From the NCBI GenBank assembly GCA_023267435.1, contig JAHFNH010000001.1, forward strand, positions 80,253 to 144,252: a stretch of DNA of 64,000 nt, read 5' to 3'. The notes beneath the pieces were generated by a model. That model searched no databases, was not told where the DNA came from, and saw only the letters and a program-made list of their open reading frames with translations. Source of the DNA: Candidatus Nomurabacteria bacterium (GTDB taxonomy: Bacteria > Patescibacteriota > Minisyncoccia > Phycocordibacterales > UBA9973). Shown here one piece after another: positions 10,901 through 64,000 of this stretch. Each line of letters begins with the position of its first letter. Position 1 is the first letter of the stretch. Both the position numbers and the translations under genes were made by a program.

Positions 10901-11053
10901 ATTACTTGATGGCGCACTTTTAGTACCATCTGTTTTAACAGAAGCATCTTGCGCGAAAGTTATAGGCGTGAGAGAAATAAAAAAACCTAAAACAAGAAAG
11001 AAAACTACAGCTCTAACTAACACTAACGAACATAAAAATTTCTTTATATTCAT
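4976..11053 (-). CDS. Giant secreted SpvB/FG-GAP/RHS-repeat polymorphic toxin (Tc-toxin BC-like) with a C-terminal M15/LAS zinc-peptidase-like toxin domain
   Basis: N-terminal signal peptide and SpvB-like block PNLSLQYNSQ..GYGWSMNIPYIQR. Six DxNGDGxxD FG-GAP/VCBS motifs and many YD/RHS repeats (YTYDGLGRR, YAYDNAGNMT, YQYDNAGNRV). RHS core YYVHTDHLGSTN...YYKAGVGQFISQD and autoproteolysis-type motif NMKDPSGK. The tail has SAHYVGTAVD and LRWGGDF..DGVHID. Confidence 0.85.
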   Translation of the reverse strand: MNIKKFLCSLVLVRAVVFFLVLGFFISLTPITFAQDASVKTDGTKSAPSSNVSDTNTTDVALPDLSAKDINAKVTATDNISAIKKDAPSGGTISSEDTLTPTVEKNKSPNPTVSPMNQTNEYANVKKSIAQTDPSTGALVYSYTIAVPPGRNNTQPNLSLQYNSQNLIQDSVFGYGWSMNIPYIQRVNKKGTNTLFTDNYFSSSLSGDLVNVSGGTYASKIEKGDFLKYSFSSNMWTVTDKTGTIYTFGTNTNTRQDDPNNFSHVYKWMLESVQDTNGNFISYTYYKNSSQIYPATITYSNHSASSGIFEIDFLRSSSRSDAMMSAAAGFPSTTNYLINEIDVKVNGTWTSKYVFNYIAGTNTNRSLLSSIIESGQDTNGTVTTLPATSFSYTQGTSGFTPSNQSSTYIPIDTHNGTIPADVNGDGYTDLIQAWNNVDYYYNSAKGIYLYHPSSDNWQLDTSRSVPSDIWIARHDNNGWGDASTKVIDVNGDGLNDMVRNDPYSSWGAQASYLNNGSGWTANPSWNPPFSYPQAVADLNGDGFSDYIKDVSVWPSPVTTSIAWDTGSNFSTYNASVGQTFASPEFLNDQVFADVNGDGLADIIKSTYGVPPAQPSGMFQSVYLNTGTGWVLDSSYTLPSDFIILTRTQNGNVFNREIFQDINGDGLVDILYPYQLGGACGASCTNLKVYINQGHSWVWDINWNTGANLGINDYIDLNPGLLFDANGDGQADILNQGNYFDGITNHITNNVFFNKTTLPVDLLASITLPTGGQTNVTYKMSNHYKDGNGNLLNPSLPLNLPTTYQITTNDGNGNTGTTTYSYQGGSYFFNGSTDRKFAGFNKVIETDPAGNTTATYYHTGIGTDSSHGEYNDDEWKIGQPYRIEKTDSSTNLYSVVVNKWDDYDLGNGNKFVKLTSTTALTYDGTSSHRDTAEEYSYDNVYGNLIQKTSWGEVTANTDGSFTDIGSDKSIENILYIANTGNNVTGLPYDDTVFDQNGAKVNETRNYYDRLALGSVGLGNQTKIEKWLTGITFVNTQKSYDGVYGNVVSLTDENGHVTSYSYDSYHLYPATVTDALNHSVNYLYNYSLGKPKQITDQNGFVYKTEYDGLDRVLVEKVPDLITPSILVTKTAYVYTDIAGAVSIHKTDYLNASNSVDTYQYFDGLGRIIQNRKETETSNNFNVSDYVYNNLGMIQKQSLPYTGTGLVKTFPNTNVSLYTIYIYDPMGRVLNSVNSVGTTSYVYNLWKISVTDPRGKIKDTYSDARGNLIRVDEHNSGSTYTTAYSWNLNGKVKNITDALSNVRNFTYDGLGRRLTAEDLHTPGDTTFGIWTYAYDNAGNMTQSVSPEAKTTNYTFDVLNRMLTENYTGATGTEISYFYDSCTNGISKICGIVMPSGANISYTYDSNGNITSETKTINSNIFVTSYVYDEQGNVTIMTYPDNAQVRYTFNTAGLLNQIERKENAGSFTNVISNIDYSPMNQVAVINYANGTTTTNTYNASQMYRLSNKFTTNGNGISLQNIVYTYDMDNNIIQIIDTSNTSATKNVVYAYDDLNRLVVAFATGVPAGQTPYTQNFTYNAVGNILNKSDVGNYLYQGNTGTNYANPHAATSINSVTNTYDKNGNLLTDGTIINTWNYKNELVQVTKNVNLSNSRSPIAQPVQNSITLVYQYDNAGNRVRMQKGSVNTYYPNNFYNTDGTKKTKSIYIGDQLVATVETVGGVVTPYYVHTDHLGSTNVVSNTTGTSVQLLDYFPFGSQRISSGTYNTQRQYIGQVYDTDTGLDYLNARYYKAGVGQFISQDSMFWQLPQELLLDPQQQNSYSYARDNPVNMKDPSGKIAVLSAIKSFLNSINSFLSKGSTQTVLSGQKTSTSDSGTTLVNYKGNNFLNSTNKVPVDFTKDLNRLNQYAGKNDVKLQIESSGVRIKGDPIPGDVYHKQGEVTENSAHYVGTAVDVNIQYKNNNKDIMCGSSCLNSGFNSLPNPVQGFVGDVRNDSGLRWGGDFNRVDGVHIDNGLYQHNPNEYLRRFNILQN

Positions 11054-12617: not shown

Positions 12618-14375
12618 TTAAACTTCTTCTGGTAAAAATCCTCCGGCTTGCATGTGCCACAAATTGGCATACTTTCCATTCTTTTTTAATAATTCCTCAT
12701 GCGTGCCGTCTTCAATAATCTTGCCATTTTCAAGAAAGATAATTCTATCCATGAATTGCAAAGTGGAAAGGCGGTGAGCTATTGCTATCACAGTTTTGTT
12801 TTGCATCAGAACTTTGAGTGCTGTTTGCACTTTTGCCTCACTGTCGCTATCGAGTGCGCTTGTGGCTTCATCGAGAATGAATAACGGACTGTTTTTTAGA
12901 ATTGCCCGAGCAATAGCAACTCTCTGTCTTTGCCCACCAGAAAGCTTCACTCCGCGCTCCCCGACAATGGTGTCATAACCTTTCGGCAATGTCTGAATAA
13001 ATTCATCTGCGTATGCCATTTTTGCCACTTCTATTATTTTTTCTCTCGGAACTTCCAGTGATCCATACTGAATATTTTCTGCGATGGTCGTATGGAAAAG
13101 AGAGGTATCTTGAGAAATAAAAGAAATATGTGAACGAAGAGATTCTTGAGTTATTTCCGAAATATCAAGGCTATTGATAATTATTTTTCCTTCTTGCGGA
13201 TCAAAAAATCTAAGCAGTAAATTTATCAAGGTTGTCTTCCCTACTCCGCTCAAGCCGACAATGCCAATCTTTTGTTTTGGTGGAATAATTAAAGAAAAAT
13301 GATCCAGAATATTTTTGTTTTCATTGTAAGTAAAACTGACATCCTGATAAATAACATCAACTGTGTCCCATTTGTTTACGATATGATTCTTGCCGTCATT
13401 CACGGAAGGTTCAACCAAAAGATCTTTAAGCACTTGGGAACATTCACTATAATTTCTAGTAAATTCTGAAAGGCTGTTTCCTGCATTGTAAACATAACTT
13501 ATTATCTTTAAACCGACGCCCGATATGAGCACCATCTCACCTATACTGATGAGTCCATGATTATATCCTCGAGCGGTTAGAATAATAAAAGCACATCCAA
13601 GCAAAACTGCCGAAACTCCCTGATACAGATAAACTAACACAAACCATTTACCCATGCTCAACTGTGAGTGATATTCTTTGTCGATTTGATTGTATATCCG
13701 CTGTTGATCAAAATCCCTGCTATACACTTTCACGGATGAAATATTAGTATAAATATCTACGAGTGCTCCGGTAGTGTTAGAACTGTCTTCCGCAAACATT
13801 TCTGCATATAAATTTATTTTTTTAATAAATGGACGAATTCCGACAATAAAGACAATCACCCACACAACAATCGCGAGACCAAGAGGTGGATACACGAGAG
13901 TCATTGTAACCATACTGATAACTACCAGCACGATGTTATCAATAAAATTATTCGTGACATTGTTTTTCATCGATTCAAGAGTATCTGCCGCGGTGCTTAT
14001 TTTGTGAGAAATTTGTCCAGCAAATCTATCGGCAAAATAACCAAAGGAAAGCTTCGAAGTATGAGCAAAAAGATATTTTTTAACATTTCGCCTAATACGA
14101 GAACTGACAGTGACTTCCAGCACATGGCCAATGCGATAAGAAAATTCATTGGTAAACAATGTAATAACAAGAAGTATTGTAAGTATTTTTACGTTGCCAT
14201 TGCCGGCATTTAAAGCATCAATAATCTTTCCTAAAAAATACGAAATGCCTATTGAGGTAAAAGTTCCTATGCCGTAAAACAAGCTGTTCAAAAGTATCCA
14301 TTTTATTTCTTTGGAATTAGTGGCTAGAAAAAACTTTAACGGATTATTATAATTTTCAGATTTTATTTTGTTCAT
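12618..14375 (-). CDS. ABC transporter permease/ATPase fusion (MsbA-like exporter)
   Basis: N-terminal 6-TM domain. Walker A GLSGVGKTT, signature LSGGQRQRVAIARA, Walker B ILDEATSALD. Confidence 0.85.
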   Translation of the reverse strand: MNKIKSENYNNPLKFFLATNSKEIKWILLNSLFYGIGTFTSIGISYFLGKIIDALNAGNGNVKILTILLVITLFTNEFSYRIGHVLEVTVSSRIRRNVKKYLFAHTSKLSFGYFADRFAGQISHKISTAADTLESMKNNVTNNFIDNIVLVVISMVTMTLVYPPLGLAIVVWVIVFIVGIRPFIKKINLYAEMFAEDSSNTTGALVDIYTNISSVKVYSRDFDQQRIYNQIDKEYHSQLSMGKWFVLVYLYQGVSAVLLGCAFIILTARGYNHGLISIGEMVLISGVGLKIISYVYNAGNSLSEFTRNYSECSQVLKDLLVEPSVNDGKNHIVNKWDTVDVIYQDVSFTYNENKNILDHFSLIIPPKQKIGIVGLSGVGKTTLINLLLRFFDPQEGKIIINSLDISEITQESLRSHISFISQDTSLFHTTIAENIQYGSLEVPREKIIEVAKMAYADEFIQTLPKGYDTIVGERGVKLSGGQRQRVAIARAILKNSPLFILDEATSALDSDSEAKVQTALKVLMQNKTVIAIAHRLSTLQFMDRIIFLENGKIIEDGTHEELLKKNGKYANLWHMQAGGFLPEEV

Positions 14376-15570
14376 TTTTTTTATTAAAATTAAAATAAAT
14401 TACGGCGAAAATAATGCTGATTACTGCTAATACAGAAAGAGTGATACGCATGCTTGATAAGTCTATCATGATACCTAAAACAATCGGTCCGGTGATTTCT
14501 GCTACTTGCGACACACCTTCAAATGCTCCGCTCAATGTGCCAATGTGTTCTTTCGGAACCGCAAGCGTTATTTCCCTATCAACTGATAGGCCTAACAATT
14601 GAAGACATGAACCAATCAAAAATACTAAAACCAACTGCGCTGGAAATATTGGAATAAAAGCAAGGAGAAATAAGAAAACTGTTAAAAATCCACATGTCCA
14701 AAATATTGTGTGTTTATATTTATCGGCAATTAAACCAAGAGGAGAACTAAATAAAGCCGGAAAAGCTGCAAAACCAGTTAGTAAAACAATTTGCCAAAGA
14801 CTTTGGTGTTGAGTAAAAGCATAAATAGGAATAAAAAACTCTCCGACTGTGGCTGTTATATCAATAAACAAATAAAATACTGCAAGCCAGCGTACGTTCC
14901 TGCCCCAAGAAATAATTGTTTTGAAAAAACTTCCATAAGAACCGAAAACTGAGAGACGAGCTTCTTTGGTAAGAGATGAAGCAGTCAGTCCATCCGGTAG
15001 TTTGCGCACGAAATAAATCGCAATGAGCGAAGTCGGAGCAATCATTAAAAATAAATAATGAATAGGAATATATCGTACAAGTATCGCACTAATGAAAATA
15101 GCCACGAGCCACCAGAAATTTGCCAATGAATCCATATATCCGAATGAAGTAGCAATATTTTCGGGCTTAGCGTGAGTGCGCACATAAGTAGCTCGTCCGA
15201 CACCATCGAGAGCATAAGCAACGCCGTTGATAATACGCGCACAAACAATGAAAGCAATAACCCCAAATACTCCAGCGGAAAAATAACTGATACTGATAAA
15301 TGGATACAACAATAATGAAACAATCAAAAGTTTCTTACTGGCGATATTGTCAGCGAGCCAAGACACCATTGGAAGTGAAAGCAAAAATACAACTCCATAA
15401 ATAGAACGCAATAAACCTGTCTCAGCATAAGTGTGAGCGAAAGAGAAAAGGAAAATAGGCAAAAATGCCTCAGCAAACCCCCAACCGAACCAGCGGATAG
15501 ATGTGGCGATAGATATAAGTCGCACTCCTTCTTCAATATTTGGATTAAAAAGTTTAAAAAATTTCTTCAT
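14356..15570 (-). CDS. MFS transporter
   Basis: About 12 TM segments, 404 aa. Confidence 0.7.
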   Translation of the reverse strand: MKKFFKLFNPNIEEGVRLISIATSIRWFGWGFAEAFLPIFLFSFAHTYAETGLLRSIYGVVFLLSLPMVSWLADNIASKKLLIVSLLLYPFISISYFSAGVFGVIAFIVCARIINGVAYALDGVGRATYVRTHAKPENIATSFGYMDSLANFWWLVAIFISAILVRYIPIHYLFLMIAPTSLIAIYFVRKLPDGLTASSLTKEARLSVFGSYGSFFKTIISWGRNVRWLAVFYLFIDITATVGEFFIPIYAFTQHQSLWQIVLLTGFAAFPALFSSPLGLIADKYKHTIFWTCGFLTVFLFLLAFIPIFPAQLVLVFLIGSCLQLLGLSVDREITLAVPKEHIGTLSGAFEGVSQVAEITGPIVLGIMIDLSSMRITLSVLAVISIIFAVIYFNFNKKNEQNKI

Positions 15571-15603
15571 ATAAATGATTACTCAACTTGGTCATTTTAG
15601 CAT

Positions 15604-15650
15604 ATTTGTGATATTGTTTGGTTAGAAATTCAATTGTTGTCTAACTAAAA
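15604..15650 (+). promoter_or_regulatory. Copy 1 of the shared promoter/operator module (TGTGATATTGTTTGGTTAGA..TCTAACT)
   Basis: -10-like TATTGT with a TTAGA-n13-TCTAA inverted repeat, 15 nt upstream of the ATG at 15661. Confidence 0.5.
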
Positions 15651-16688: not shown

Positions 16689-16754
16689 TTGTCTATATTT
16701 ATTTAGTTAGAACTATGTTTATTTCTAGTTTCAGACTATCAACAAACCATTTAC

Positions 16755-16836
16755 AAGTCAACATACTTGTGATATTGTTTGGTTAAATAAATTCCTGAAA
16801 AATAATCGAGCAATAGCTCATTAAAAACTTAAAACC
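16755..16836 (+). promoter_or_regulatory. Copy 2 of the shared promoter module, plus the 5'UTR block CGAGCAATAGCTCATTAAAAA
   Basis: AAGTCAAC-n6-GTGATATTGTTTGGTTA. The UTR block recurs at 32966. Confidence 0.45.
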
Positions 16837-17699: not shown

Positions 17700-17781
17700 A
17701 AATCTTTGACCTGTCAACGCATTTATGATATTGTTTGGTTAGAAATTTTGTTATTGTCTAACTCTCTAAATACCTTGAAAA
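17700..17781 (+). promoter_or_regulatory. Copy 3 of the shared promoter/operator module
   Basis: TTGACCTGTCAA palindrome, TGATATTGT, GGTTAGAAATTTTGTTATTGTCTAACT. Confidence 0.5.
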
Positions 17782-32904: not shown

Positions 32905-33001
32905 CAATATCACAAAAACATTGACGAGTCAATAAATATTTGGTATTGTCTGGTTAGACATTTCTGATAACTAACCGAGCCTAGCTCATTAAAAAATAAA
33001 A
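32905..33001 (+). promoter_or_regulatory. Copy 4 of the shared promoter/operator module (TTGACGAGTCAA, TATTGT, GGTTAGACATTTCTGATAACTAACC)
   Basis: 40 of 41 nt identical to the copy at 34432 (ATCACAAAAACATTGACGAGTCAATaAATNTTTGGTA). Confidence 0.55.
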
Positions 33002-34429: not shown

Positions 34430-34524
34430 CCATATCACAAAAACATTGACGAGTCAATGAATGTTTGGTAATGTAACAACAGAACATCGCTATTTAAAAT
34501 AAAATCTCACTAAAAATAAAACAA
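34430..34524 (+). promoter_or_regulatory. Copy 5 of the shared promoter module plus a conserved 5'UTR (..TCTCACTAAAA..)
   Basis: ATCACAAAAACATTGACGAGTCAATGAATGTTTGGTAATGT. Confidence 0.55.
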
Positions 34525-35499: not shown

Positions 35500-35610
35500 T
35501 TTTACAAAAACATTGACGGGTCAACAAATCTTTGGTAAAGTAACAAAAAGATTGCGTTGTTTGAAAAATTAACAAATTCACTGAATATTCTCACTAAAAC
35601 AATAAATAAA
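35500..35610 (+). promoter_or_regulatory. Copy 6 of the shared promoter module plus 5'UTR
   Basis: TTACAAAAACATTGACGGGTCAACAAATCTTTGGTAAAGT. UTR homologous to copy 5. Confidence 0.55.
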
Positions 35611-54249: not shown

Positions 54250-54366
54250 TTTTAGCCCAGCCCTAAAGGTTTTCGCCTGCGGGCACTGGCTTCGTTTTGT
54301 CCGCCAGAAAATTTTTAGGGCTGGGCTTTCCTTTGCATTTCCTGGCTTTTCGTATAGAATGGGAGG

Positions 54367-55095
54367 ATGCATTACCTTTGGGACACTATTTTATATAAGC
54401 CTTTTGTAAATATCTTAGCGCTTTTGGTTTCATTTATACCTGGAGGAGACGTTGGGTTTGCGGTTATTATCCTTACTTTACTTGTTAAAACAGCTCTCAT
54501 TCCCCTTTCCCAGCGTTCTATTGAAAGTCAGGCTAAAATGAAACTCTTGGAGCCTGAAATGAAGAAAATAAAGACCGGTGGCGCTACTAAAGAAGAACAA
54601 GCCAAGCAAACAATGGAGCTTTATAAAAAATATAAAACAAACCCTTTTTCCGGGTGTCTCTTGGTTTTAATTCAAATACCGATAATTTTAGCTCTTTATT
54701 ACGCTTTTTATAAAGGTATAAAATTTGACGGAGGCCTGCTTTACTCATTTGTTCATATTCCAGCAAAAATAAATATGGTTTTCATTGGATTGGTAGATCT
54801 GGGGCAAAAAAGCTTAGTGCTAGCTATACTCGCTGGTGTCTCTCAATTCTTACAAGCACACTATATGCCAAAATCTTTACCATCTTCTTCATCTGACAAA
54901 AGTTCTTTCCAGGAAAGTTTCGCTCAAAGTATGCAGATGCAGATGAAATATTTTCTTCCGATTCTAATTGTTTTCATTGCTTACAGAATTTCTGGAGTAG
55001 TTGCATTATATTGGATTACCAGTAATATGTTTACTGTGGTTCAGCAGATTTATGCCAGTAAAAAGAAAGGTCATTTAGAATTAATGATTCAATAA
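54367..55095 (+). CDS. yidC: YidC/Oxa1-family membrane insertase (short form)
   Basis: Five TM segments. PLSQRSIESQAKMKLLEPEMKKI and YWITSNMFTVVQQ. Confidence 0.8.
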   Translation: MHYLWDTILYKPFVNILALLVSFIPGGDVGFAVIILTLLVKTALIPLSQRSIESQAKMKLLEPEMKKIKTGGATKEEQAKQTMELYKKYKTNPFSGCLLVLIQIPIILALYYAFYKGIKFDGGLLYSFVHIPAKINMVFIGLVDLGQKSLVLAILAGVSQFLQAHYMPKSLPSSSSDKSSFQESFAQSMQMQMKYFLPILIVFIAYRISGVVALYWITSNMFTVVQQIYASKKKGHLELMIQ

Positions 55096-55110
55096 TAAAA
55101 ACATAAAAAT

Positions 55111-55593
55111 ATGAACAAAACAGAAATACAAAATTTAATTAAAGAATTGATCGAAAATATGAATGTTTCCGTGAAGGAAATTACAGTCTCCCAAGAAGAT
55201 GGTTCCAATACTGTTTGGTACTCAGTGAGTGTTTCTGAACCGCATCTTTTTACTTCACGAGAAGGTGAAGCTCTTTCTTCTTTGAATCATTTGGTCAGGA
55301 GAATTATTGAATCTAAGACGCTAGTAGAGGCAGGAGTGGAAAGTGTGAACACACCTATTTTAATTGATATTGGGGATTTTCAGAAAAAGAGAGTGGATAA
55401 TATTAAAGCAGTTGCTCATATGATGGCTGAACGCGCTAGGTATTTCAAATCAAATATAGAGATAGATCCAATGTCTGCTTTTGATCGACGTATTGTGCAT
55501 GATTTTCTATCAAGTTCTACAGATCTAAAAACAGAATCCACTGGTTTCGGTCCTTCTCGCCGAGTGGTTATAAAATATATTGGAGGAATATAA
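55111..55593 (+). CDS. jag: Jag/KhpB RNA-binding protein (KH plus R3H)
   Basis: R3H-like FDRRIVHDFL. Its position after yidC is canonical. Confidence 0.7.
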   Translation: MNKTEIQNLIKELIENMNVSVKEITVSQEDGSNTVWYSVSVSEPHLFTSREGEALSSLNHLVRRIIESKTLVEAGVESVNTPILIDIGDFQKKRVDNIKAVAHMMAERARYFKSNIEIDPMSAFDRRIVHDFLSSSTDLKTESTGFGPSRRVVIKYIGGI

Positions 55594-55600
55594 AAATTTT

Positions 55601-57448
55601 TTATTTATCTTGGGCGACACATTGATCGTATAAACTCTTTCTTAGAGGAGCTTCTTTTTGTGTAAATGCATCATTGCCATTACAGCTTCCGGATGTATAC
55701 ATTCTAAAAGTTCCTTCTATACTTCCGCATAGTTTATAGACTTTAGTCATATATTCTGATGCTACTAAAATATCTGTTGTATTATTATTTAATAAGTCTT
55801 TTGGAAAAATGGTGGTTGTGTTGGGTACAGTTGTAACTGTAATACCTTTATTATAATTAGCTCCTTTAGTTGAACCACTTGGGAAAAATGTAACACCAAA
55901 AAGTCCGACTGAATGAGAAAATCTCCAGTCTAAACCAAGATCATTCGCACTTGAGTTTAATTGATCGTTGTTTAGGAAAGAATGGTCCGTAATTTTTGGA
56001 TCAGTGCTATTTCCTGCTGGAAAACTTGTGCCATCGAATTTTTTACCTGACGCAATAAAATCTTTTCTAGATGGAACACCTGCAGATGGAACATTTTCAT
56101 CATGGCCAATGAGCCCTGTGACACCTCTAGATTCTCTTTGAATTGCCACTTGCAATAGACAGTGTGGAATATTGTATTCTTGTTTTACTGCGATAGTTTT
56201 TATTTGATCATAAAAGCTTGTTCTTTGGAAAGCTGTATCTGTTCCTTGTGTTTGAGAGAGGTTGTAATTATTTCCAGATGAATCAAATACCACTGACGCA
56301 TCATTTATCCCACTCAAACTCACATCTAGTAGTTGAGGATTAATAGTATTCAATAAAACATAAGAACCAAGTGCAATCAAAAGTCCAAAGATAGCATTAC
56401 CAATCCTTTTTCTACCTTCTTCTTTAGAAGTCATTAATTCACTAGTCACATACTCTATTCCACCTATTACTATCATTACAAAAGATAATACAGCACATAA
56501 TCCGATGAATATTCGAATCATTGTATTAAAATACTTACCAAAAACATTACCTTGAGTAGAATCAATGATTGTTATAGTATTTCCTCCTCCTGTTCCCTCA
56601 CCTGCCTTTGTTGGTAGTGGAGCAAGGAGTTGATATGTAGTGTCTGAATTGGGTGGAGGTAGAGTAACGGGTGTTATTTCAACTTGTACTTTTTTAGGGC
56701 TGAAGGTTTTAACAGTAGTGCTACAAACTTTATCAAAAGTATTTTCAGCACAGGCTGTATAGTAATACATTGTGCCTTCCACCATATTCTGCCCCTTATA
56801 TTTTTCTATAGAATTTTTGAAATCTATAGAAGCTTGGTTGTAATTTTCATCTCCATATAAACTATTTAGAGTCTTATGTGTTGTTTCAGCATCTAAATTA
56901 GCACTACTCAATCCATATTTAAACCACACAGTCACAGGATTCTTATTATTCTGCACCGTTCCTACCAACGTAGCACCTAAACCAGTTAGATTAATTATAT
57001 CTTTTGTATATACAGTCGGTGGTCTGCTTTCACTGATGACATGAGTTCCACCACCACTCGTATCAAAATCATCTTGAAACAATCGAACAACTTTATTATC
57101 GGGATACACACCTTCTATTCTATAAGTAAATAAATGCATGGATGCGGTGTATGGAAAAAGGTTTGTTGAATATGCAAAAGTAAGAGGCGCTGTACTTGCT
57201 GGGTCATATGATATATCAAGTTGTTTTGAAAATAATGCTGTTGTGTGATCTTTCTGATATATATATAGATAATAATAAACTGGTACTGGTTCTGTTAAAG
57301 AATCAATAACAACATGACCATTAACAGAGAAGGTTGTTCCCGTTATATCTGTTTTGTCGACTATTACATGCGCAGCCGCCTTAGCCTGAGATGCAATAAA
57401 AAAAGCAGAGATGATGAGCGTTAAGAATATGTATTTTAGGGTTTTCAT
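55601..57448 (-). CDS. Secreted single-TM cell-wall hydrolase paralog A, with a C-terminal lysozyme/SLT-like domain (T4SS-associated, VirB1/CwlT-like)
   Basis: Signal peptide and internal TM (IRIFIGLCAVLSFVMIVIGGI). C-terminal VAIQRES... and ..EYMTKVYKLCG..RMYTSGS resemble SLT blocks. The central 758 bp is identical to paralog B. Confidence 0.5.
   Translation of the reverse strand: MKTLKYIFLTLIISAFFIASQAKAAAHVIVDKTDITGTTFSVNGHVVIDSLTEPVPVYYYLYIYQKDHTTALFSKQLDISYDPASTAPLTFAYSTNLFPYTASMHLFTYRIEGVYPDNKVVRLFQDDFDTSGGGTHVISESRPPTVYTKDIINLTGLGATLVGTVQNNKNPVTVWFKYGLSSANLDAETTHKTLNSLYGDENYNQASIDFKNSIEKYKGQNMVEGTMYYYTACAENTFDKVCSTTVKTFSPKKVQVEITPVTLPPPNSDTTYQLLAPLPTKAGEGTGGGNTITIIDSTQGNVFGKYFNTMIRIFIGLCAVLSFVMIVIGGIEYVTSELMTSKEEGRKRIGNAIFGLLIALGSYVLLNTINPQLLDVSLSGINDASVVFDSSGNNYNLSQTQGTDTAFQRTSFYDQIKTIAVKQEYNIPHCLLQVAIQRESRGVTGLIGHDENVPSAGVPSRKDFIASGKKFDGTSFPAGNSTDPKITDHSFLNNDQLNSSANDLGLDWRFSHSVGLFGVTFFPSGSTKGANYNKGITVTTVPNTTTIFPKDLLNNNTTDILVASEYMTKVYKLCGSIEGTFRMYTSGSCNGNDAFTQKEAPLRKSLYDQCVAQDK
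56295..57052. repeat. 758-bp perfect direct repeat, copy 1
   Basis: Base-for-base identical to 59448..60205 on visual alignment. Coding in both copies. Confidence 0.8.
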
Positions 57449-57485
57449 CTTTCTTGCTATGTACTTTTTTAAAACACAAATAGAA

Positions 57486-58844
57486 CTATTTTAAATTCAA
57501 CTTCCAAAGATAAGAATCTTTTTTGTTTACAAAAAATAAATAATTTTCACCATCATCCAAAGCAAGTTTAGTACCGTCCATATCTTCCCCGCCTACTACT
57601 GCAGCTGGATCAGAAATCATTGTTGCATTATTATTTGTCGCCTCTATTTTCCAAAGTTCATCTGAGAACGAAACTTGTCCTTGATACCAATCATCTGGAT
57701 ATTGTCCCTGGTCAACAAATTTTGGTACGGAACAATATACAATATCGCTATTTTTACCCCAAACGCATTTTTCTGGAAGAGTTTTTAAACCAAGAAGGCT
57801 AGAACTTTTAGTATCTACATTGTAAATATAAAGAGATAAGTTGTTGTTGTTATAAAGGATTAATTTCCCATTTGGACTGGTGAGGGTAGTGAGTCCGTTT
57901 ATACCACCGAGAATTTTATTAAAATCTTTTTTATCTGGGTTGATCGCATACATATAACCGGGAACATTAGCAGAAGGTTTAGTGGTAAGAGTGATCATTT
58001 TGTCGTTTGGCCATTGAGACAACCATTCTGTGAAAGGAGAATTAAATATTTGGGATTTTTTGTCACCCAATGAACCGGAAGTTATGCCTACTGTGCCATC
58101 TCCAACTTTAAAGAGATAGAATATTTTTGAAGCATCTGGAGAAACGCTCAAGTCTGAAATATTTTCCGGCAAGAAAGATCCTTTTATTTCAGTATCTGTC
58201 GTAGTGTCTCCGCCTAATATCTGTTTTGGCAAGCTACCAATAAAAGTTTCTATTGTTTTGTCGTCTGTTTTTAAATAGCGCATTACCACAGACTCTCCTT
58301 TAGCTCCAAAAAATGCTTCATGCACTATTGGAATAACTGTTGTGGTGAAATTACGCTCGTCTATTTTATCGGCAAGTGTTTGGTAAATATTTCCTGTTGC
58401 TCTGTCTACATATCTGACAGCCGGTATAAATTCAGTTGGAGGTGGTGTTGGTTTTACCGGAGCCGTTTTTCCTTTTTTGGTTGTTGTAGTAGTGGTTGCA
58501 GTATCAGGCGCGGCGGTGACAGTTATTGATGCTTCTTTAAATCTTTCTTGCATAAATACTCCAAAGCCTGCGATCGGCATAGTTGAAACCTTAACCATAT
58601 TTGCCTTAGATGCTTCTATTATTGGTGCTTTTTCAAATCCTGAAATATTGGCTGGGGCTGTCGGTTCAGCTGTTTTTGGAGCTGTACTTTTTAGAAATGG
58701 AAAAAATTGAGAGACAAAATTTATCCCCTGTGTGCCTGTTGTTGGGGCTGGTGTACTACTTTTGAAAAAATAGGAAAATCCAAAACTAATGGCTAGTATA
58801 GCTACAATGATAATTATTAAAAGTGTTAAATTTCTTTTTGTCAT
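57486..58844 (-). CDS. Membrane-anchored protein with a Thr/Pro-rich linker and a beta-propeller-like (TolB/PD40-like) domain
   Basis: N-terminal TM, TATTTTTKKGKTAPVKPTPPPT linker, repeated S.DG.K/L.Y.. strands. Confidence 0.4.
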   Translation of the reverse strand: MTKRNLTLLIIIIVAILAISFGFSYFFKSSTPAPTTGTQGINFVSQFFPFLKSTAPKTAEPTAPANISGFEKAPIIEASKANMVKVSTMPIAGFGVFMQERFKEASITVTAAPDTATTTTTTKKGKTAPVKPTPPPTEFIPAVRYVDRATGNIYQTLADKIDERNFTTTVIPIVHEAFFGAKGESVVMRYLKTDDKTIETFIGSLPKQILGGDTTTDTEIKGSFLPENISDLSVSPDASKIFYLFKVGDGTVGITSGSLGDKKSQIFNSPFTEWLSQWPNDKMITLTTKPSANVPGYMYAINPDKKDFNKILGGINGLTTLTSPNGKLILYNNNNLSLYIYNVDTKSSSLLGLKTLPEKCVWGKNSDIVYCSVPKFVDQGQYPDDWYQGQVSFSDELWKIEATNNNATMISDPAAVVGGEDMDGTKLALDDGENYLFFVNKKDSYLWKLNLK

Positions 58845-58852
58845 ATTTTTTT

Positions 58853-60601
58853 TTAAATTCTCTTAAAATGGTTTATTATTTTTCCATATTTACTAATGAT
58901 ATTAAAAATAGTGAATGCTTGTCCAGAGCTTCTGCCGTTGTGAGCTGCTGTTGATTCAGCAGCTTTTCCACCTCCAATATAAACAAAAGCATGACCTACA
59001 GATGTTCCAGGTGTGCCTGTGGTCCAACCAACAACATCTCCTGGTTTAAGTGCTTGTCCATTTAAAACAGTTTCACCATTTGCTTCAGTTTGCGTTGTGA
59101 TTGTTTCTAATCCTGTGCCTGTGCTGAATGCCATACCAGAACTTCCTCCAGGAGGATTTAATCCGGCGCATTCCAAAACATAATCAACAAAACCAGTGCA
59201 ATCAAGACATATTGTGCCAGTCGGACAAAAACTACTGCAGGCTATATTATTATCACACATTTTTGTGTCTGAAGGGTAAGGAGCTGGACCGCCCTTGCCG
59301 CCAAAACGATAAGTCACCTTGCCGTTTAGACTATTTACAATCTCAGCTATTCTAGCTGATCCACCAGCTTTGGGACAAACGATTCCTGTCGGAGGAGTAA
59401 AATTTAATGACACAGGCGAATTCGTGAATCCACCACTGTTAGTTATCGACGCATCATTTATCCCACTCAAACTCACATCTAGTAGTTGAGGATTAATAGT
59501 ATTCAATAAAACATAAGAACCAAGTGCAATCAAAAGTCCAAAGATAGCATTACCAATCCTTTTTCTACCTTCTTCTTTAGAAGTCATTAATTCACTAGTC
59601 ACATACTCTATTCCACCTATTACTATCATTACAAAAGATAATACAGCACATAATCCGATGAATATTCGAATCATTGTATTAAAATACTTACCAAAAACAT
59701 TACCTTGAGTAGAATCAATGATTGTTATAGTATTTCCTCCTCCTGTTCCCTCACCTGCCTTTGTTGGTAGTGGAGCAAGGAGTTGATATGTAGTGTCTGA
59801 ATTGGGTGGAGGTAGAGTAACGGGTGTTATTTCAACTTGTACTTTTTTAGGGCTGAAGGTTTTAACAGTAGTGCTACAAACTTTATCAAAAGTATTTTCA
59901 GCACAGGCTGTATAGTAATACATTGTGCCTTCCACCATATTCTGCCCCTTATATTTTTCTATAGAATTTTTGAAATCTATAGAAGCTTGGTTGTAATTTT
60001 CATCTCCATATAAACTATTTAGAGTCTTATGTGTTGTTTCAGCATCTAAATTAGCACTACTCAATCCATATTTAAACCACACAGTCACAGGATTCTTATT
60101 ATTCTGCACCGTTCCTACCAACGTAGCACCTAAACCAGTTAGATTAATTATATCTTTTGTATATACAGTCGGTGGTCTGCTTTCACTGATGACATGAGTT
60201 CCACCTGTGACACTTGTATCAAAATTATTACCCGGAGAGTTTAAGAAAACAGGAGGCGGAGTGTTGTTGTAGTAAACCCCTATTATTTTATAAGTAAATA
60301 AATGTTTTGTTGAAGTAAACTGGCTTATGTTTATTGAGTAATGAAACGTAAGAGTTTGAGGATCAATAGTAATCGGACTGCTTTGTATTAATGGTGCTGA
60401 TTTTCCTTGTTCATACAGAAAAAAAAAGTAATTCATTGGCATTTGCTGTATTGGGAAAGCCATAACCTTACCATCTATTGCTATAGTTGTGCCAGTTATG
60501 TCTTGTTTAGTTATGTCTATAGCGATTGTGGCTTTAGCCGGAGATGCAATAAAAAAAGCAGAGATGATGAGCGTTAAGAATATGTATTTTAGGTTTTTCA
60601 T
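58853..60601 (-). CDS. Secreted single-TM cell-wall hydrolase paralog B with a C-terminal NlpC/P60 endopeptidase domain
   Basis: LDCTGFVDYVLECAG (Cys nucleophile block) and GDVVGWTTG..GHAFVYIGG (His block). Shares the identical middle region and a near-identical signal peptide with paralog A. Confidence 0.6.
   Translation of the reverse strand: MKNLKYIFLTLIISAFFIASPAKATIAIDITKQDITGTTIAIDGKVMAFPIQQMPMNYFFFLYEQGKSAPLIQSSPITIDPQTLTFHYSINISQFTSTKHLFTYKIIGVYYNNTPPPVFLNSPGNNFDTSVTGGTHVISESRPPTVYTKDIINLTGLGATLVGTVQNNKNPVTVWFKYGLSSANLDAETTHKTLNSLYGDENYNQASIDFKNSIEKYKGQNMVEGTMYYYTACAENTFDKVCSTTVKTFSPKKVQVEITPVTLPPPNSDTTYQLLAPLPTKAGEGTGGGNTITIIDSTQGNVFGKYFNTMIRIFIGLCAVLSFVMIVIGGIEYVTSELMTSKEEGRKRIGNAIFGLLIALGSYVLLNTINPQLLDVSLSGINDASITNSGGFTNSPVSLNFTPPTGIVCPKAGGSARIAEIVNSLNGKVTYRFGGKGGPAPYPSDTKMCDNNIACSSFCPTGTICLDCTGFVDYVLECAGLNPPGGSSGMAFSTGTGLETITTQTEANGETVLNGQALKPGDVVGWTTGTPGTSVGHAFVYIGGGKAAESTAAHNGRSSGQAFTIFNIISKYGKIINHFKRI
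59448..60205. repeat. 758-bp perfect direct repeat, copy 2
   Basis: See copy 1. The offset is 3153 bp. Confidence 0.8.
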
Positions 60602-60602
60602 A

Positions 60603-61589
60603 CTAGAAATTCATATTGATTTCTTTCTCTAAACTCTGAAAAAGAGTTTGGATATTTTTGACAGAGATATTTATTTTAGCTGATCCGGATTTTCCACTTT
60701 CTGGTTTGATTGATAGGATATTTTTTGGATCTGGTGTTTGGAGTGGTGCTCCGTTTAAGGACCAGTCAAAAACAAGATTGTCTGAAGTTATATCTTTGGG
60801 TGAAAAGAAATATGGTTCGGCGACAAGTATCTCACCATTTGGATTTATTGTGAAAAAATTACCTAATGAATTTTCCCATTTTGTGCCGAGAGACAAGTCT
60901 TTTTCATAAAATATTATTTTTGGAATTGAAGTGCGTAGATTTATACTACCGGAAACACTTGTGTTGCCAGTGATATCTGATATAGCTACTTCAATGTTAT
61001 TACTCTTTTCTAAGTAGTTATTTTTGAAAATAAAATAACTCTTTCCCCATCCGGAAGAATTAGGCTGGCCATTCCCGTCTTTAGTCCAGGTATAAGACAG
61101 ATTACTGGCACTTGATTTTCCAATTGAAGTCATTAAGTTTGGCATTGCTACTACTTTGAAAGTTCCCTGGCTTGGAACCAATGCTTTTCCTTTGTAAAAA
61201 GGTGGAACATATGAATCTGGAGCTTCCCATAACATATCTACTTCTGTGGGTGTTATGGTTATTGTTTTTACAATATTTTGTCCATCCAATGTATTCATTC
61301 TCACACTCAAAACTGAAGATGAGCCCACATCACCTGTATTGAAAGAAAAAGTTTTTTTACCGATTCCTGAAAGGGTTTCTTTGTTGTTCATTGACCAAGA
61401 AATATTTGCTTTATCTAGATTAACTGCGAAGCTACTCAAGGTGGCATTTACGCTTTGATTGGGAGCTGGATAGGTCGGATTTATGGTTAAAGCGACATCG
61501 GTATTCTGCACTTGCGCAAAAGCTGTTCCATAAAAAGCACCGAATAAAATTACTGTAACGATTATTGATTTTTTAATCAAATTTATCAT
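60603..61589 (-). CDS. Secreted beta-rich hypothetical protein (T4SS cluster)
   Basis: Signal peptide IIVTVILFGAFYGTAFA. 328 aa. Confidence 0.4.
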   Translation of the reverse strand: MINLIKKSIIVTVILFGAFYGTAFAQVQNTDVALTINPTYPAPNQSVNATLSSFAVNLDKANISWSMNNKETLSGIGKKTFSFNTGDVGSSSVLSVRMNTLDGQNIVKTITITPTEVDMLWEAPDSYVPPFYKGKALVPSQGTFKVVAMPNLMTSIGKSSASNLSYTWTKDGNGQPNSSGWGKSYFIFKNNYLEKSNNIEVAISDITGNTSVSGSINLRTSIPKIIFYEKDLSLGTKWENSLGNFFTINPNGEILVAEPYFFSPKDITSDNLVFDWSLNGAPLQTPDPKNILSIKPESGKSGSAKINISVKNIQTLFQSLEKEINMNF

Positions 61590-61629
61590 AAGGTTACTTA
61601 TATTGTAACATTTTATAATTTTTTTATCC

Positions 61630-63471
61630 TTAGTGGGATATTTCTTTTTCTGCTTCCAAGTCTTGCTTAGCTTTTTTGATAGATAGGATTTGAGAAGGGT
61701 CGGAAGTAATGATCTGGTCTTCGGTATATGAGGAGATTATTTTAATCGCCACATGCTTTAAACCCGCAAAGAAGATACCTTCTCCTACTCCAGATTCTAG
61801 AAGTAGGTATTTTTCTTCGTCTGTCAGGTTGAATGTCTTTTGCAAGACATCGATAGTAGATGGAGATTGTTTTAAGAGAAGTTGAATAGAAGAGTTGGTA
61901 ACGATCGGTACGCCGTAGGGGGACTTCATAAAGTCAGCCGCGTCTTGAGTGATCGTCGAAAGTCCAAGATAATATTTTCTACCTCTTTTAGCAATAGAAT
62001 AAAGGAATGAAGCGGTGTCTTCTGATTTCATCATCCACCATGCCTCATCCACGACCAATAAGCGCTTTTTTAAATTTTTACGCACAGCATTCCAGATATA
62101 GTGTGTGACGATATACATCGCGATCGGCTTCAATTCATCTTCCATGTCGCGTACAGAAAACACAACGAACTTTTTATTGATATCAACATTCGAAGGTTTG
62201 TTTAAGAATGTAGACCAAGAACCTCGAGTGTATTTTATAAGTCTTTGCACCACTGAATCACTTCCGTCCATTCCAGAAAGAACCATTTCAAAATCTGAAA
62301 GAAGTGGAGGTTCGATATTTGAGAAGTCTGAGTCTGGTGTGATGTCTTTTATGGCGTAAGTTTCTGAAATAGCGCGGTCCACCATTGAATCTTCTTCAGG
62401 AGTTAGCCCACCCAACATCAATCGGAAAAGCCCGACGAGGTTGATGATATTTGAACGAAGAACATCCTCAGCAGTTTCGTCTTCACGCGGTATCGGCAAG
62501 TCAAAAGGATTGATATGGTGATCTGAAGAAAGAGAAATATTAAAATATCTTCCGCCGACAGCTTCAGCGAGGTACTCGTATTCCCTTTCCGGATCGATCA
62601 CAATGACATCTATGTCAAACATCAAAGATCTTAGGATTTCCAATTTTGTCGCATAAGATTTTCCTGAACCAGACTTTGCGAAAGTTACAGAGTTATAATT
62701 TTCAAGCGAGAAACGATCAAAGATAACCAAACTAGAATTGTGTCTGTTTACGCCATAAAGTATTCCTTTGTCTGAAGTTAAGTCGAAAGAAACGAATGGA
62801 AAAATACTGGAAAGCGGTTCGGAATTTAATTTCTGGTGGACCGACAAGATATCATTTCCGATCGGAATAACGCTTTTAAATCCATCGTCCTGCTGGAAAA
62901 GAGCCGGCTTAATATAAATAAGTTTTGATTCCAGCATTGATTTGATTTCATTTTCAACTTTAAAGAGCTCTAATTCGTTGTCGGCATAAACTGTAATATA
63001 AACTCCAACATCAAACATTTTTTCCTGTGCTTGCATCAAATTATCGCGAAGACCCTCCAAATCTTGAAAGGCTGTGTCGAGCATTGGGTCGCGCACCATA
63101 CCTTTCGATTCTCGAGCAGAAATCTGACTTTGCACTTCTGCTACTTTTTTCTGGAATTGCCTCAAAGCGAGCGAAGTATCTATCGGATGGATAAAAATAG
63201 AAACATCAAATATTTTATCCAAATTTATGATGGGTGAAAACCAATTGTCTGTCAGAAATCTCGGATAAGATATTATAAAAAATGTTCGAGCAATTTTATC
63301 TCCTAAATTTATAGATTTAGGCTCTATTTTTAAGGCTGACGGCGCGATGACATCTTGGAGTTCTAGGGTCGCTGACTCGTAAATTTCTTCAGGAAGAACA
63401 GCTAAAACAGAAGCACTAGCGGTGCTTTCTGAAGTTTTCTTTTTTCCGAATAATGTATCAAAAAAAGCCAT
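61630..63471 (-). CDS. VirB4-family type IV secretion/conjugation ATPase (Gram-positive TcpF/PrgJ/ConE-like)
   Basis: Walker A AKSGSGKSYATK and Walker B with the family-typical LLVVDEAWWMM. 613 aa. Confidence 0.65.
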   Translation of the reverse strand: MAFFDTLFGKKKTSESTASASVLAVLPEEIYESATLELQDVIAPSALKIEPKSINLGDKIARTFFIISYPRFLTDNWFSPIINLDKIFDVSIFIHPIDTSLALRQFQKKVAEVQSQISARESKGMVRDPMLDTAFQDLEGLRDNLMQAQEKMFDVGVYITVYADNELELFKVENEIKSMLESKLIYIKPALFQQDDGFKSVIPIGNDILSVHQKLNSEPLSSIFPFVSFDLTSDKGILYGVNRHNSSLVIFDRFSLENYNSVTFAKSGSGKSYATKLEILRSLMFDIDVIVIDPEREYEYLAEAVGGRYFNISLSSDHHINPFDLPIPREDETAEDVLRSNIINLVGLFRLMLGGLTPEEDSMVDRAISETYAIKDITPDSDFSNIEPPLLSDFEMVLSGMDGSDSVVQRLIKYTRGSWSTFLNKPSNVDINKKFVVFSVRDMEDELKPIAMYIVTHYIWNAVRKNLKKRLLVVDEAWWMMKSEDTASFLYSIAKRGRKYYLGLSTITQDAADFMKSPYGVPIVTNSSIQLLLKQSPSTIDVLQKTFNLTDEEKYLLLESGVGEGIFFAGLKHVAIKIISSYTEDQIITSDPSQILSIKKAKQDLEAEKEISH

Positions 63472-63522: not shown

Positions 63523-63927
63523 TTAGTTAGTTTTTTCCAGCTCTATTTTACCCTCTATTTCTCCGGGGTTGAACACTTTATAGAAGACTTCCACGACTTC
63601 TTCTGTTCCCAATTGGACGGATTTTATACCGCAACGGGAAAGCCCTTGCTGGATGACACTGACTCTCTGCTCCAACTGAGATCTTTTTTCTTCAAAATCA
63701 GTCTGTTCTGCAGCTTTTATTTCCTCTCTGCTTCTTTTTGAAAAAAATCCTTTAAATATCCCCGAGTCTGTTTTAAAAGATACGGGAGTGTAAGGCACGA
63801 CCACAAAAAAACTTTTAGTCATTATACTGACTGATTCAGTGAAGTTTTTAATAAAGTCTATATACTCTCTTGTTTGAAGTTTGAGTAAGGGTTCTGTCTG
63901 CACTTTCATTCTGTTTTCTAAAAGCAA
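63523..63927 (-). CDS. Hypothetical protein upstream of the VirB4-like gene
   Basis: 134 aa. The operon on the minus strand presumably continues beyond the window end. Confidence 0.35.
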   Translation of the reverse strand: MLLENRMKVQTEPLLKLQTREYIDFIKNFTESVSIMTKSFFVVVPYTPVSFKTDSGIFKGFFSKRSREEIKAAEQTDFEEKRSQLEQRVSVIQQGLSRCGIKSVQLGTEEVVEVFYKVFNPGEIEGKIELEKTN

Positions 63928-64000
63928 AAGATAAGGCCTGATGTCGAGCTTTCTGGATTGGACGGATATTTGAATAGAAAAATCTATAGTATTTAAAAAT

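Follow-up and report, generated by a model that had tools for sequence, protein, structure and literature searches.

The locus raises the question of how two neighbouring genes of an ultrasmall Patescibacteria member, a Candidatus Nomurabacteria bacterium, A and B, whose products end in different enzymes, came to hold one perfectly identical segment in their middle. In the window (the whole 64,000-nt stretch of DNA analysed here), base-by-base comparison at an offset of 3153 finds a single exact run of 758 nt, 56295-57052 = 59448-60205, with 0 mismatches and 0 gaps, which bears out the perfect direct repeats about 3.15 kb apart described by a sequence-only reading of this DNA. The two copies, direct repeats spaced 3,153 nt apart and 100% identical, cannot be a chance match, and no further long repeats lie within the 64-kb window. 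Their boundaries are sharp and in frame: ungapped identity drops to 12-36% in the flanks on both sides, and the tract stops where the homology does, 14 residues past the NTINPxL motif that closes a pilin module. A shorter repeat at the 5' ends of the genes, again at an offset of 3153, takes in the start codon and signal peptide; 68 of its 71 nt are identical, with an exact run of 53 nt inside it, much as the same reading had said of some 70 nt of near-identical signal-peptide DNA. That reading had also given the extents of both open reading frames correctly.

55601..57448, minus strand: gene A, 615 aa, lying between M and jag; signal peptide, N-domain, FN3-like domain, T4SS-pilin module and SLT-type lytic transglycosylase
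58853..60601, minus strand: gene B, 582 aa, in the slot between g328 and M; signal peptide, N-domain, FN3-like domain, T4SS-pilin module and NlpC/P60 endopeptidase
56295..57052, minus strand: 758-nt repeat, gene A copy (codons 133-385), an exact match to 59448-60205
59448..60205, minus strand: 758-nt repeat, gene B copy (codons 133-385: FN3-like domain, VirB2-like pilin module and first linker residues)
57378..57448, minus strand: 71-nt signal-peptide repeat, gene A copy
60531..60601, minus strand: 71-nt signal-peptide repeat, gene B copy
57053..57376, minus strand: orphan N-domain of A (aa 25-132)
60206..60529, minus strand: orphan N-domain of B (aa 25-132)
56654..57052 in A (identical B copy 59807-60205), minus strand: FN3-like beta-sandwich, aa 133-265, from a weak match to Pfam Pur_ac_phosph_N
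56295..56653 in A (identical B copy 59448-59806), minus strand: VirB2-like 'T4SS pilin' module, aa 266-385, tblastn coordinates
55604..56293, minus strand: C-terminal domain of A, SLT/GH23-fold lytic transglycosylase with an insertion; a QRES motif carries the invariant Glu
58856..59446, minus strand: C-terminal domain of B, NlpC/P60 cysteine peptidase (LDCTGF Cys, GHAFVY His), from Pfam and motifs in the translation

The proteins encoded by A and B

Both genes are complete open reading frames with start codon, signal peptide and catalytic domain, and B is identical to P0001. Aligned along their length they form a mosaic: the signal peptides agree at 59 of 60 nt, the N-domains at ~55% of nucleotides and the 758-nt segment at every position, and beyond it homology is absent. 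The earlier reading was right that the genes diverge after the signal peptide, though the divergent stretch spans 108 codons (aa 25-132) and not the roughly 130 that it gave. Over this stretch pS is 0.67, dS ~1.7 and dN/dS ~0.34, and in an exhaustive HMMER search of 1.84 billion representatives the sole homologue of the N-domain of A at E<=1e-3 was that of B (39% identity, E 3.9e-9).

Within the identical tract the membrane helix noted previously belongs to a two-helix VirB2-like pilin module, and the part once taken for a propeller-like domain is FN3-like instead: it matches the FN3-type family Pur_ac_phosph_N weakly in Pfam (E 0.048), as do three syntenic homologues at E<=1e-3. The pilin module has a YxLLAPLP motif, two hydrophobic helices, a charged loop and an NTINPQLL motif; read from the translation, the helix-loop-helix that follows the signal peptide, MIRIFIGLCAVLSFVMIVIGGI - EYVTSELMTSKEEGRKR - IGNAIFGLLIALGSYVLL, has the VirB2-like form. 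Pfam PF18895 scores A at 16.4 bits (E 0.0095), below its cut-off of 26.6, and does not list B; among 84 syntenic homologues, 69 match it at E<=1e-3, several of them above the cut-off (33.9 in L001, 35.0 in L010), and some match TrbC/VirB2 (PF04956) in addition. To these homologues the A/B module is 40-59% identical. In proteins of 582 and 615 aa, the module is flanked by large domains to either side.

The C-terminal catalytic domains differ, as had been proposed, and can now be named. That of B matches PF00877 (NLPC_P60) at 30.2 bits against a cut-off of 23, with the catalytic Cys and His present. That of A has no direct match to PF01464 or any other Pfam family and no significant PDB sequence-profile match; it is tied to SLT transitively, through P0017, P0019, P0022 and P0025, which are 33-47% identical to it and themselves match SLT at E 1e-6 to 2e-9, and it has the features of a goose-lysozyme/SLT fold, the catalytic Glu lying within an E-S motif. 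The two enzymes would thus cleave complementary bonds, in the glycan strand and the peptide stem, from one identical membrane and T4SS-docking module. Their target is presumably a wall, be it the cell's own or that of a host.

An origin-proximal secretion locus

Exact look-ups matched no contig encoding A or B but did so for M, VirB4, jag and g328, neighbours present in one copy, and it is from these that the context of the locus was taken.

55111..55593, plus strand: jag (R3H), convergent with A
57486..58844, minus strand: gene M, 452 aa, conserved T4SS-locus protein between the repeats
60603..61589, minus strand: g328, conserved secreted protein upstream of B
61630..63471, minus strand: VirB4-like ATPase, CD1110 family, monoderm conjugation type (NCBIfam NF045971 and Pfam P-loop_TraG)
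63523..64000, minus strand: TraC-like (PF26593) T4SS gene, 3' part, cut by the window end (ENA gene table and ORF)

The VirB4-like ATPase scores 371 bits against NF045971 (cut-off 325), a PrgI/VirB3-like gene is seen further upstream in the ENA contig, and beyond jag lie yidC, rnpA and dnaA, the origin region, with dnaA ~2 kb past A. A CD1110-type VirB4 with PrgI- and TraC-like neighbours near dnaA identifies the locus as a Patescibacterial MPF-FATA-like T4SS. Tight gene spacing suggests a single operon; a promoter and terminator scan gave results at chance level. Gene M, a propeller gene in the earlier reading, has no Pfam, NCBIfam or significant PDB sequence match.

The order g134-VirB4-g328-pilin gene-M / jag-yidC-rnpA-dnaA is kept in ~70 species, nearly all with one pilin gene, and M follows the pilin gene in ~70 of 80 related loci. 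In relatives jag adjoins M directly, and here it lies 7 nt downstream of A. Since ~70 related species have a single pilin gene between g328 and M, A is the extra copy: B occupies the ancestral slot, and A was added between M and jag.

What the slot encodes varies among species. Past NTINPxL, a motif that is nearly invariant (T368, N370, P371 and L373 in A3), homologues carry NlpC/P60, VanY, YkuD, M15_4, SLT_2, SLT or 3D domains. These C-terminal domains are swapped among close relatives, and the enzyme type differs even where the VirB4 of each species shares 89-93% identity with that of the window. Pilin-SLT-like and pilin-NlpC/P60 fusions are both widespread as native fusions, which fits the homogenisation of two pre-existing genes.

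Three other metagenome-assembled genomes (MAGs) carry several copies, and in these the pilin modules are 81-100% identical within the genome, whereas the closest match from a different genome reaches 40-59%, with the caveat that all three come from one project's SPAdes-style co-assemblies and are technically not fully independent. L072 has an 820-nt repeat of 100% identity that makes the whole 5' part identical while the C-terminal domains differ; L075 has a 395-nt repeat of 100% identity, in the pilin-M-pilin order seen here, with N-regions ~55% identical; L078 has three pilin modules, 81-100% identical in amino acids. In a metagenome scan M had no match from a conspecific strain (best match 72% aa), and hence there were no genomes to show co-variation of A and B.

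Origin of the identical tract

We consider it probable that A and B are functional pilin-hydrolase paralogs, the products of an old duplication, in which the 758-nt segment was recently gene-converted; the recent conversion or recombination proposed from the sequence alone is, as conversion, the likeliest course given the contrast in age, the synteny and the recurrence in three MAGs. The N-domains are saturated at synonymous sites, so the duplication must be old, and N-domains this diverged (39% aa, pS 0.67) beside 0 differences in 758 nt point to recent gene conversion. As B supplies the only homologue of the N-domain of A, the two would descend from a shared lineage-specific ancestor and not from import out of any sampled donor. 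In such a scheme the ancestral pilin-hydrolase gene of the origin-proximal type IV secretion locus of Paceibacteria/Nomurabacteria would have duplicated long ago to give A and B; intragenomic, non-reciprocal homologous recombination would recently have overwritten the 758 nt of FN3-like domain plus pilin, and the signal-peptide segment was probably treated in the same way at an earlier time. The outcome would be an endopeptidase and a lytic transglycosylase, both extracytoplasmic, mounted on an identical pilin module, and selection may have favoured keeping the modules identical. Conversion itself is the mechanism that we infer, and a very recent in-frame segmental replacement is formally inseparable from it. 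A diversity-generating retroelement as the source of the N-domain divergence was rejected on account of indels, substitutions of every type and synonymous saturation.

It is unlikely that the arrangement reflects instead a recent partial duplication with module shuffling, in which a copy of the 5' part of B joined up with an incoming hydrolase cassette, one N-domain being replaced later through recombination with foreign DNA. The identical 820-nt 5' part and differing C-terminal domains of L072 are what would be expected soon after such an event, C-terminal domains at this slot are indeed exchanged among close relatives, and the signal-peptide and FN3 flanks could have anchored a replacement of the N-domain. 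However, the N-domain of A has no external donor, its sole detectable homologue being that of B; a widespread family of fusions has the pilin-SLT-like junction of A as its native one, a point against a new fusion; and the extent of the tract varies by genome (395, 758 and 820 nt), in keeping with repeated conversion. Very unlikely, in our estimate, is an assembly artefact, whereby one locus, or two strain alleles of a single pilin-hydrolase slot, would have been laid out as tandem genes. The earlier reading had raised this possibility, and the source contig is indeed metagenome-assembled, the exact repeat is longer than typical reads and inserts, the ENA contigs are fragmented at it, and the strong polymorphism of the slot between related species makes allele mixtures plausible. 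All four junctions nevertheless recur in the Logan and ENA assemblies, which makes an assembly-made duplication improbable: Logan contig L101 confirms the 30 nt 56295-56324 adjoining the C-terminal domain of A, and contigs L100 (which stops at 57411) and L102 each end 30 nt inside the exact run of the signal peptide, in copies A and B, respectively. The exact 100% identity could be partly true by construction, as a consensus effect, since a short-read assembler walks the repeat node twice; the ENA contigs break within the 758-nt repeat at about positions 480 and 618, so a few real differences may have been merged, a hint of hidden heterogeneity. Validation through independent public assemblies makes the locus a worked example for long exact repeats in MAGs.

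The sequence-only reading also suggested that the repeats could act as a switch. Programmed or frequent recombination between them would delete the C-terminal domain of B, M and the N-domain of A, leaving a hybrid of the N-domain of B, pilin and SLT domain and so switching phase or enzyme. RecA acts well on direct repeats of this length and the hybrid would stay in frame, but the deletion would take with it M, conserved here in ~70 of 80 related species, and no site-specific recombinase is among the nearby listed ORFs. Hybrid proteins are also absent from a collection of 15 billion proteins, which is weak evidence as partial genes are not stored there: the two recombinant hybrids and nine predicted partial products were all absent by exact look-up, even the partials known from L100 and L101, so that the look-up is uninformative. 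We regard such switching as very unlikely; the claim is unsupported, as it would cost the locus a conserved gene.

Implications and comparison with known systems

In Paceibacteria, then, peptidoglycan enzymes form one protein with a VirB2-like 'pilin', the enzyme type varies, and extra copies are identical in the pilin module only. This offers a testable handle, in that the pilin module would be the part that matches the machine and the C-terminal domain an adaptable payload. A bolder and doubtful reading makes the slot a polymorphic 'warhead' locus, with a constant VirB2-like scaffold up to NTINPxL and swappable wall-cleaving domains that the epibiont would turn on the envelope of its host. 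Were it true, the tandem identical-scaffold copies seen here and in L072 and L075 would represent cassette acquisition followed by homogenisation, which would keep new enzymes compatible with a fast-evolving resident secretion machine; the orphan N-domain, with identical DNA on its two sides, would serve as another exchangeable module for specificity; and the whole would parallel, in a T4SS, the C-terminal displacement of CdiA/Rhs, but with no immunity genes.

The Patescibacterial origin-proximal T4SS is known to carry arrays of VirB2-like pilins, with VirB1-type hydrolases associated with virB4 in Paceibacteria, and the published arrays are highly divergent, with a mean of 25% and a maximum of 54% aa identity (Quinonero-Coronel et al. 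2025, PMC12102498; Wang et al. 2023, PMC10633639). The present locus resembles it in its CD1110/MPF-FATA-like VirB4, PrgI, TraC-like and PF18895 pilin genes near dnaA/dnaN/rnpA. Unlike those arrays, A and B have pilin modules whose DNA shows 100% identity; the pairs of L072 and L075 also reach 100%, and the modules of L078 81-100%, which qualifies the published view that pilin arrays are always highly divergent. Pilin-hydrolase fusion, C-terminal polymorphism at a fixed slot and gene conversion are unmentioned in PMC12102498 and the other Patescibacterial T4SS literature searched. In the single species tested, the Patescibacterial T4SS is needed for epibiotic growth.

Monoderm conjugation systems have VirB1-like two-domain hydrolases, such as PrgK of pCF10, TraG of pIP501 and CwlT of ICEBs1. 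These are membrane-anchored, T4SS-encoded and combine SLT/muramidase with CHAP/NlpC-P60 activities; A and B together match both, but here each activity has a paralog of its own, the anchoring is by a VirB2-like hairpin that comes after the orphan and FN3-like domains, and the slot of relatives holds YkuD, VanY, M15, SLT_2 or 3D. With the bacteria-killing T4SS effectors of Xanthomonas (X-Tfe) the locus shares the link of a T4SS to peptidoglycan hydrolases that possibly act on the wall of another cell; the X-Tfe are soluble, with a VirD4-binding XVIPCD signal and immunity proteins, none of which is seen at the A/B locus.

As in CdiA-CT and Rhs proteins, the N-terminal delivery part is constant, a conserved motif (NTINPxL in this case) marks it off, and the enzyme at the C-terminus varies, and, as with orphan modules, a second copy with an identical stretch of the constant part permits recombination. 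Unlike those systems there is no cognate immunity gene, B being followed by M and A by jag with no small variable ORF; A and B are each a full gene with its signal peptide, in contrast to orphan modules; and the C-terminal domains, as cell-wall enzymes, might just as well help to assemble the cell's own machinery. Bacterial paralogs in concerted evolution by gene conversion include tufA/tufB and pilE/pilS, and like these A and B hold an identical, sharp-edged tract within diverged paralogs on one chromosome. They differ in lacking promoterless, truncated silent cassettes of the kind that serve pilE/pilS antigenic variation, in that the converted part is a conserved module, not a variable one, and in that a variable N-domain lies between identical DNA on either side (71 nt and 758 nt).

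Two paralogs with an identical central segment

Compared base by base with itself at an offset of 3,153 nt, the window shows a single exact run of 758 nt (56295-57052 = 59448-60205), on both flanks of which ungapped identity is no higher than between unrelated sequences. The sequence-only reading had described perfectly identical direct repeats 3.15 kb apart, and these are confirmed, as is its ~70 nt of near-identical signal-peptide DNA: at that offset, 57378-57448 and 60531-60601 form a second repeat, identical at 68 of 71 nt, with a 53-nt exact run inside. The 64-kb window holds no further long repeats. Two conserved families of ~60-nt intergenic repeats (15587-15646, 16748-16807 and 17704-17763; 32912-32974, 34437-34499 and 35504-35566) have TTGAC...(17 nt)...TATTGT/TAATGT-like boxes and probably act as common promoter or operator elements, and a 2,025-aa ORF (4976-11053, - strand) is by far the window's largest. 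The genes concerned are:

55601-57448, - strand: gene A, an ORF of 615 aa with one 758-nt copy and an SLT-type lytic transglycosylase C-terminal domain
57486-58844, between A and B: gene M, 452 aa
58853-60601, - strand: gene B, an ORF of 582 aa with the other 758-nt copy and an NlpC/P60 C-terminal domain

The tract runs from codon 133, where its first base lies in A and B alike, to codon 385; both edges are sharp and in frame, and its 3' end, 14 residues past NTINPQLL, is the point where A/B homology stops. The shared domain is not propeller-like, as had been supposed, but consists of an FN3-like segment (weak Pur_ac_phosph_N match, E 0.048; three relatives also match this family at E<=1e-3) and a VirB2-like two-helix pilin module, for which the Pfam T4SS_pilin match is weak in A and is found in 69/84 syntenic homologues. 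The NlpC/P60 domain of B scores 30.2 bits against a cut-off of 23 and has both the Cys and the His motifs. A is missing as its own match in the homology search, probably because its cluster at 90% identity in the protein collection is represented by P0122, a 118-aa ENA fragment from a 501-nt contig.

The locus and its polymorphic slot

VirB4, g328, B, M and A lie on one strand, convergent with jag (R3H), yidC and rnpA, then dnaA and dnaN. VirB4 is a CD1110-family conjugal ATPase (NCBIfam, 371 bits against a cut-off of 325), with PrgI and a TraC-like gene directly upstream, and the locus is the origin-proximal Patescibacterial T4SS of Quinonero-Coronel et al. 2025 (PMC12102498). A search via VirB4 gave Paceibacteria/Nomurabacteria MAGs as the nearest genomes (<=93% aa identity). 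Across 80 species-level loci, wherever the DNA reaches far enough, the genes keep the order g134-VirB4-g328-pilin gene-M / jag-yidC-rnpA-dnaA-dnaN, and nearly all have one pilin gene between g328 and M, with M adjoining jag; B thus occupies the ancestral slot and A, between M and jag, is extra. M and g328 (60603-61589) are themselves kept in ~70 related T4SS loci. Neither matches a Pfam or NCBIfam family above threshold, g328 having weak sub-threshold Pfam matches alone, and M has no sequence match in the PDB; it comprises a hydrophobic N-terminal segment, a Thr/Pro-rich linker and a ~330-aa domain with invariant Cys, Trp and Tyr positions.

The pilin-gene slot is strongly polymorphic among relatives in its C-terminal domains. 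The ten nearest, with VirB4 proteins that each share 89-93% identity with that of the window, carry YkuD, M15_4, NlpC/P60, SLT_2 or unrecognised domains there, and 84 proteins yield NlpC/P60 (14), VanY (10), YkuD (5), M15_4 (3), SLT_2 (2), SLT (1) and 3D (1), all preceded by a nearly invariant NTINPxL motif. Pilin genes with differing C-terminal domains include L001:7688-8890, L006:12844-14256 and L011:12882-13979.

Assembly, probable gene conversion and the suggested deletion

An assembly artefact, raised as a possibility in the sequence-only reading, is unlikely. A 242,381-bp NCBI contig is the source of records for B, M, VirB4, g328, jag, yidC and dnaA, most of which are also recorded in Logan and ENA assemblies. 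The single run SRR14366756 gives three Logan contigs, each 100% identical to the window, which together with three contigs of ENA assembly ERZ27297709 reproduce the window's junctions:

Logan, 54287-56324: yidC, jag, A C-terminal domain, 30 nt of the repeat
Logan, 57411-59477: 30 nt of the signal-peptide run, M-A spacer, M, B C-terminal domain, 30 nt of the repeat
Logan, 60564-62002: VirB4 3' end, g328, first 38 nt of B
ENA, 104-kb: ends 292 aa into B
ENA, 3,021-nt: last 244 aa of B, M, first 293 aa of A
ENA, 4,795-nt: dnaA through jag, last 277 aa of A

Every Logan contig ends exactly k-1 = 30 nt within an exact repeat, which is where a k=31 graph should break if the repeats are true. M, not g328, precedes the A N-domain and jag, not M, follows the A C-terminal domain; these junctions would be absent were A merely an allele of the pilin slot, and the window's layout is the sole linear path using all segments. 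The ENA contigs do not break at the repeat edges: two of them stop at repeat position ~480 and two begin at ~618, a hint of heterogeneity in the reads; copy-specific or strain-level variants could have been merged in the 242-kb contig.

The N-domains (aa 25-132) provide the contrast in age. Their alignment needs indels, the same residue is found in 38/103 codons, and synonymous sites are close to saturated (pS 0.67, dS about 1.7, dN/dS about 0.34), whereas the adjoining 758 nt contain zero A/B differences, although the exactness of this identity may in part arise by construction, since an assembler that walks a repeat node twice emits identical copies. Searched exhaustively with HMMER, 1.84 billion representatives contain a single homologue of the A N-domain, that of B (39% identity, E 3.9e-9). 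Both N-domains therefore trace back to an ancestor specific to the lineage and have long been separate. Fast divergence following recent duplication would not account for the saturated synonymous sites, and there is no support for import from a sampled donor. Most simply, an old duplication yielded A and B and a recent gene conversion later overwrote the FN3-plus-pilin segment, the signal-peptide tract (3 mismatches/71 nt) reflecting an earlier or separate event. Recent gene conversion, originally proposed for these mosaic paralogs alongside recombination, is the most likely reading. These orphan, lineage-specific N-domains (57053-57376 in A, 60206-60529 in B) lie between stretches of identical DNA of 71 nt and 758 nt, and with such flanks A and B could exchange them.

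The suggested deletion switch is possible but unsupported: repeat-repeat recombination would yield an in-frame hybrid of the B N-domain, pilin module and SLT domain, but it would also lose M, kept in essentially all relatives, and the absence of such hybrids from the protein collection is weak evidence against it.

Recurrence, function and comparison with known systems

Gene conversion between paralogs would not be confined to this genome. When all fetched loci were compared with themselves, every one with more than one pilin-module gene showed this kind of within-genome similarity:

L072: tandem pair, 820 nt at 100% identity, C-terminal domains unknown and NlpC/P60
L075: pilin-3D, M, pilin-NlpC/P60, laid out as in the window; 395 nt at 100% identity, N-regions ~55% identical
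L078: three modules, 81-100% aa identity

In L078, one protein (13885-15306) has two tandem pilin modules (338 nt, 94% identity) ahead of its C-terminal domain, and a third pilin gene, its tail rich in Ser and Thr, is next. The best matches of these modules in other genomes are 40-59% aa, so that the paralogs group by genome, a signature of concerted evolution, in three loci that are all MAGs of one co-assembly project. By contrast, published Patescibacterial pilin arrays are divergent (mean 25%, maximum 54% identity; PMC12102498). Module identity may be selected, as the module must fit a fast-evolving machine, or the module may be the sole segment similar enough for recombination.

The signal peptide, two helices and positively charged loop predict that the N-terminal domains and C-terminal enzyme of A and B face outward. 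The PrgK/TraG/CwlT-type VirB1 hydrolases of monoderm T4SSs combine glycan-strand and stem-peptide cleavage; A and B, as putative glycan-strand and stem-peptide enzymes on one identical anchor, would reproduce both activities. They may make way for the secretion machine through the cell's own wall or act against that of a host. Patescibacterial lytic transglycosylases have been proposed to attack the host envelope, and the high turnover of C-terminal domains among close relatives favours, but does not prove, an interaction-driven role.

The locus type, pilin arrays and virB4-linked VirB1 homologues of Paceibacteria are already published; in the searchable literature we found neither a pilin module fused to polymorphic wall enzymes at a fixed slot, nor near-identical pilin modules of paralogs, nor the orphan N-domain. 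The feature is real and well explained, and relates to two known kinds, paralog gene conversion and Patescibacterial T4SS pilin genes. Because they lack immunity genes, A and B are not classed as polymorphic toxins, although they resemble them in having a constant part, a demarcation motif, a variable C-terminal domain and a second copy with common constant sequence.
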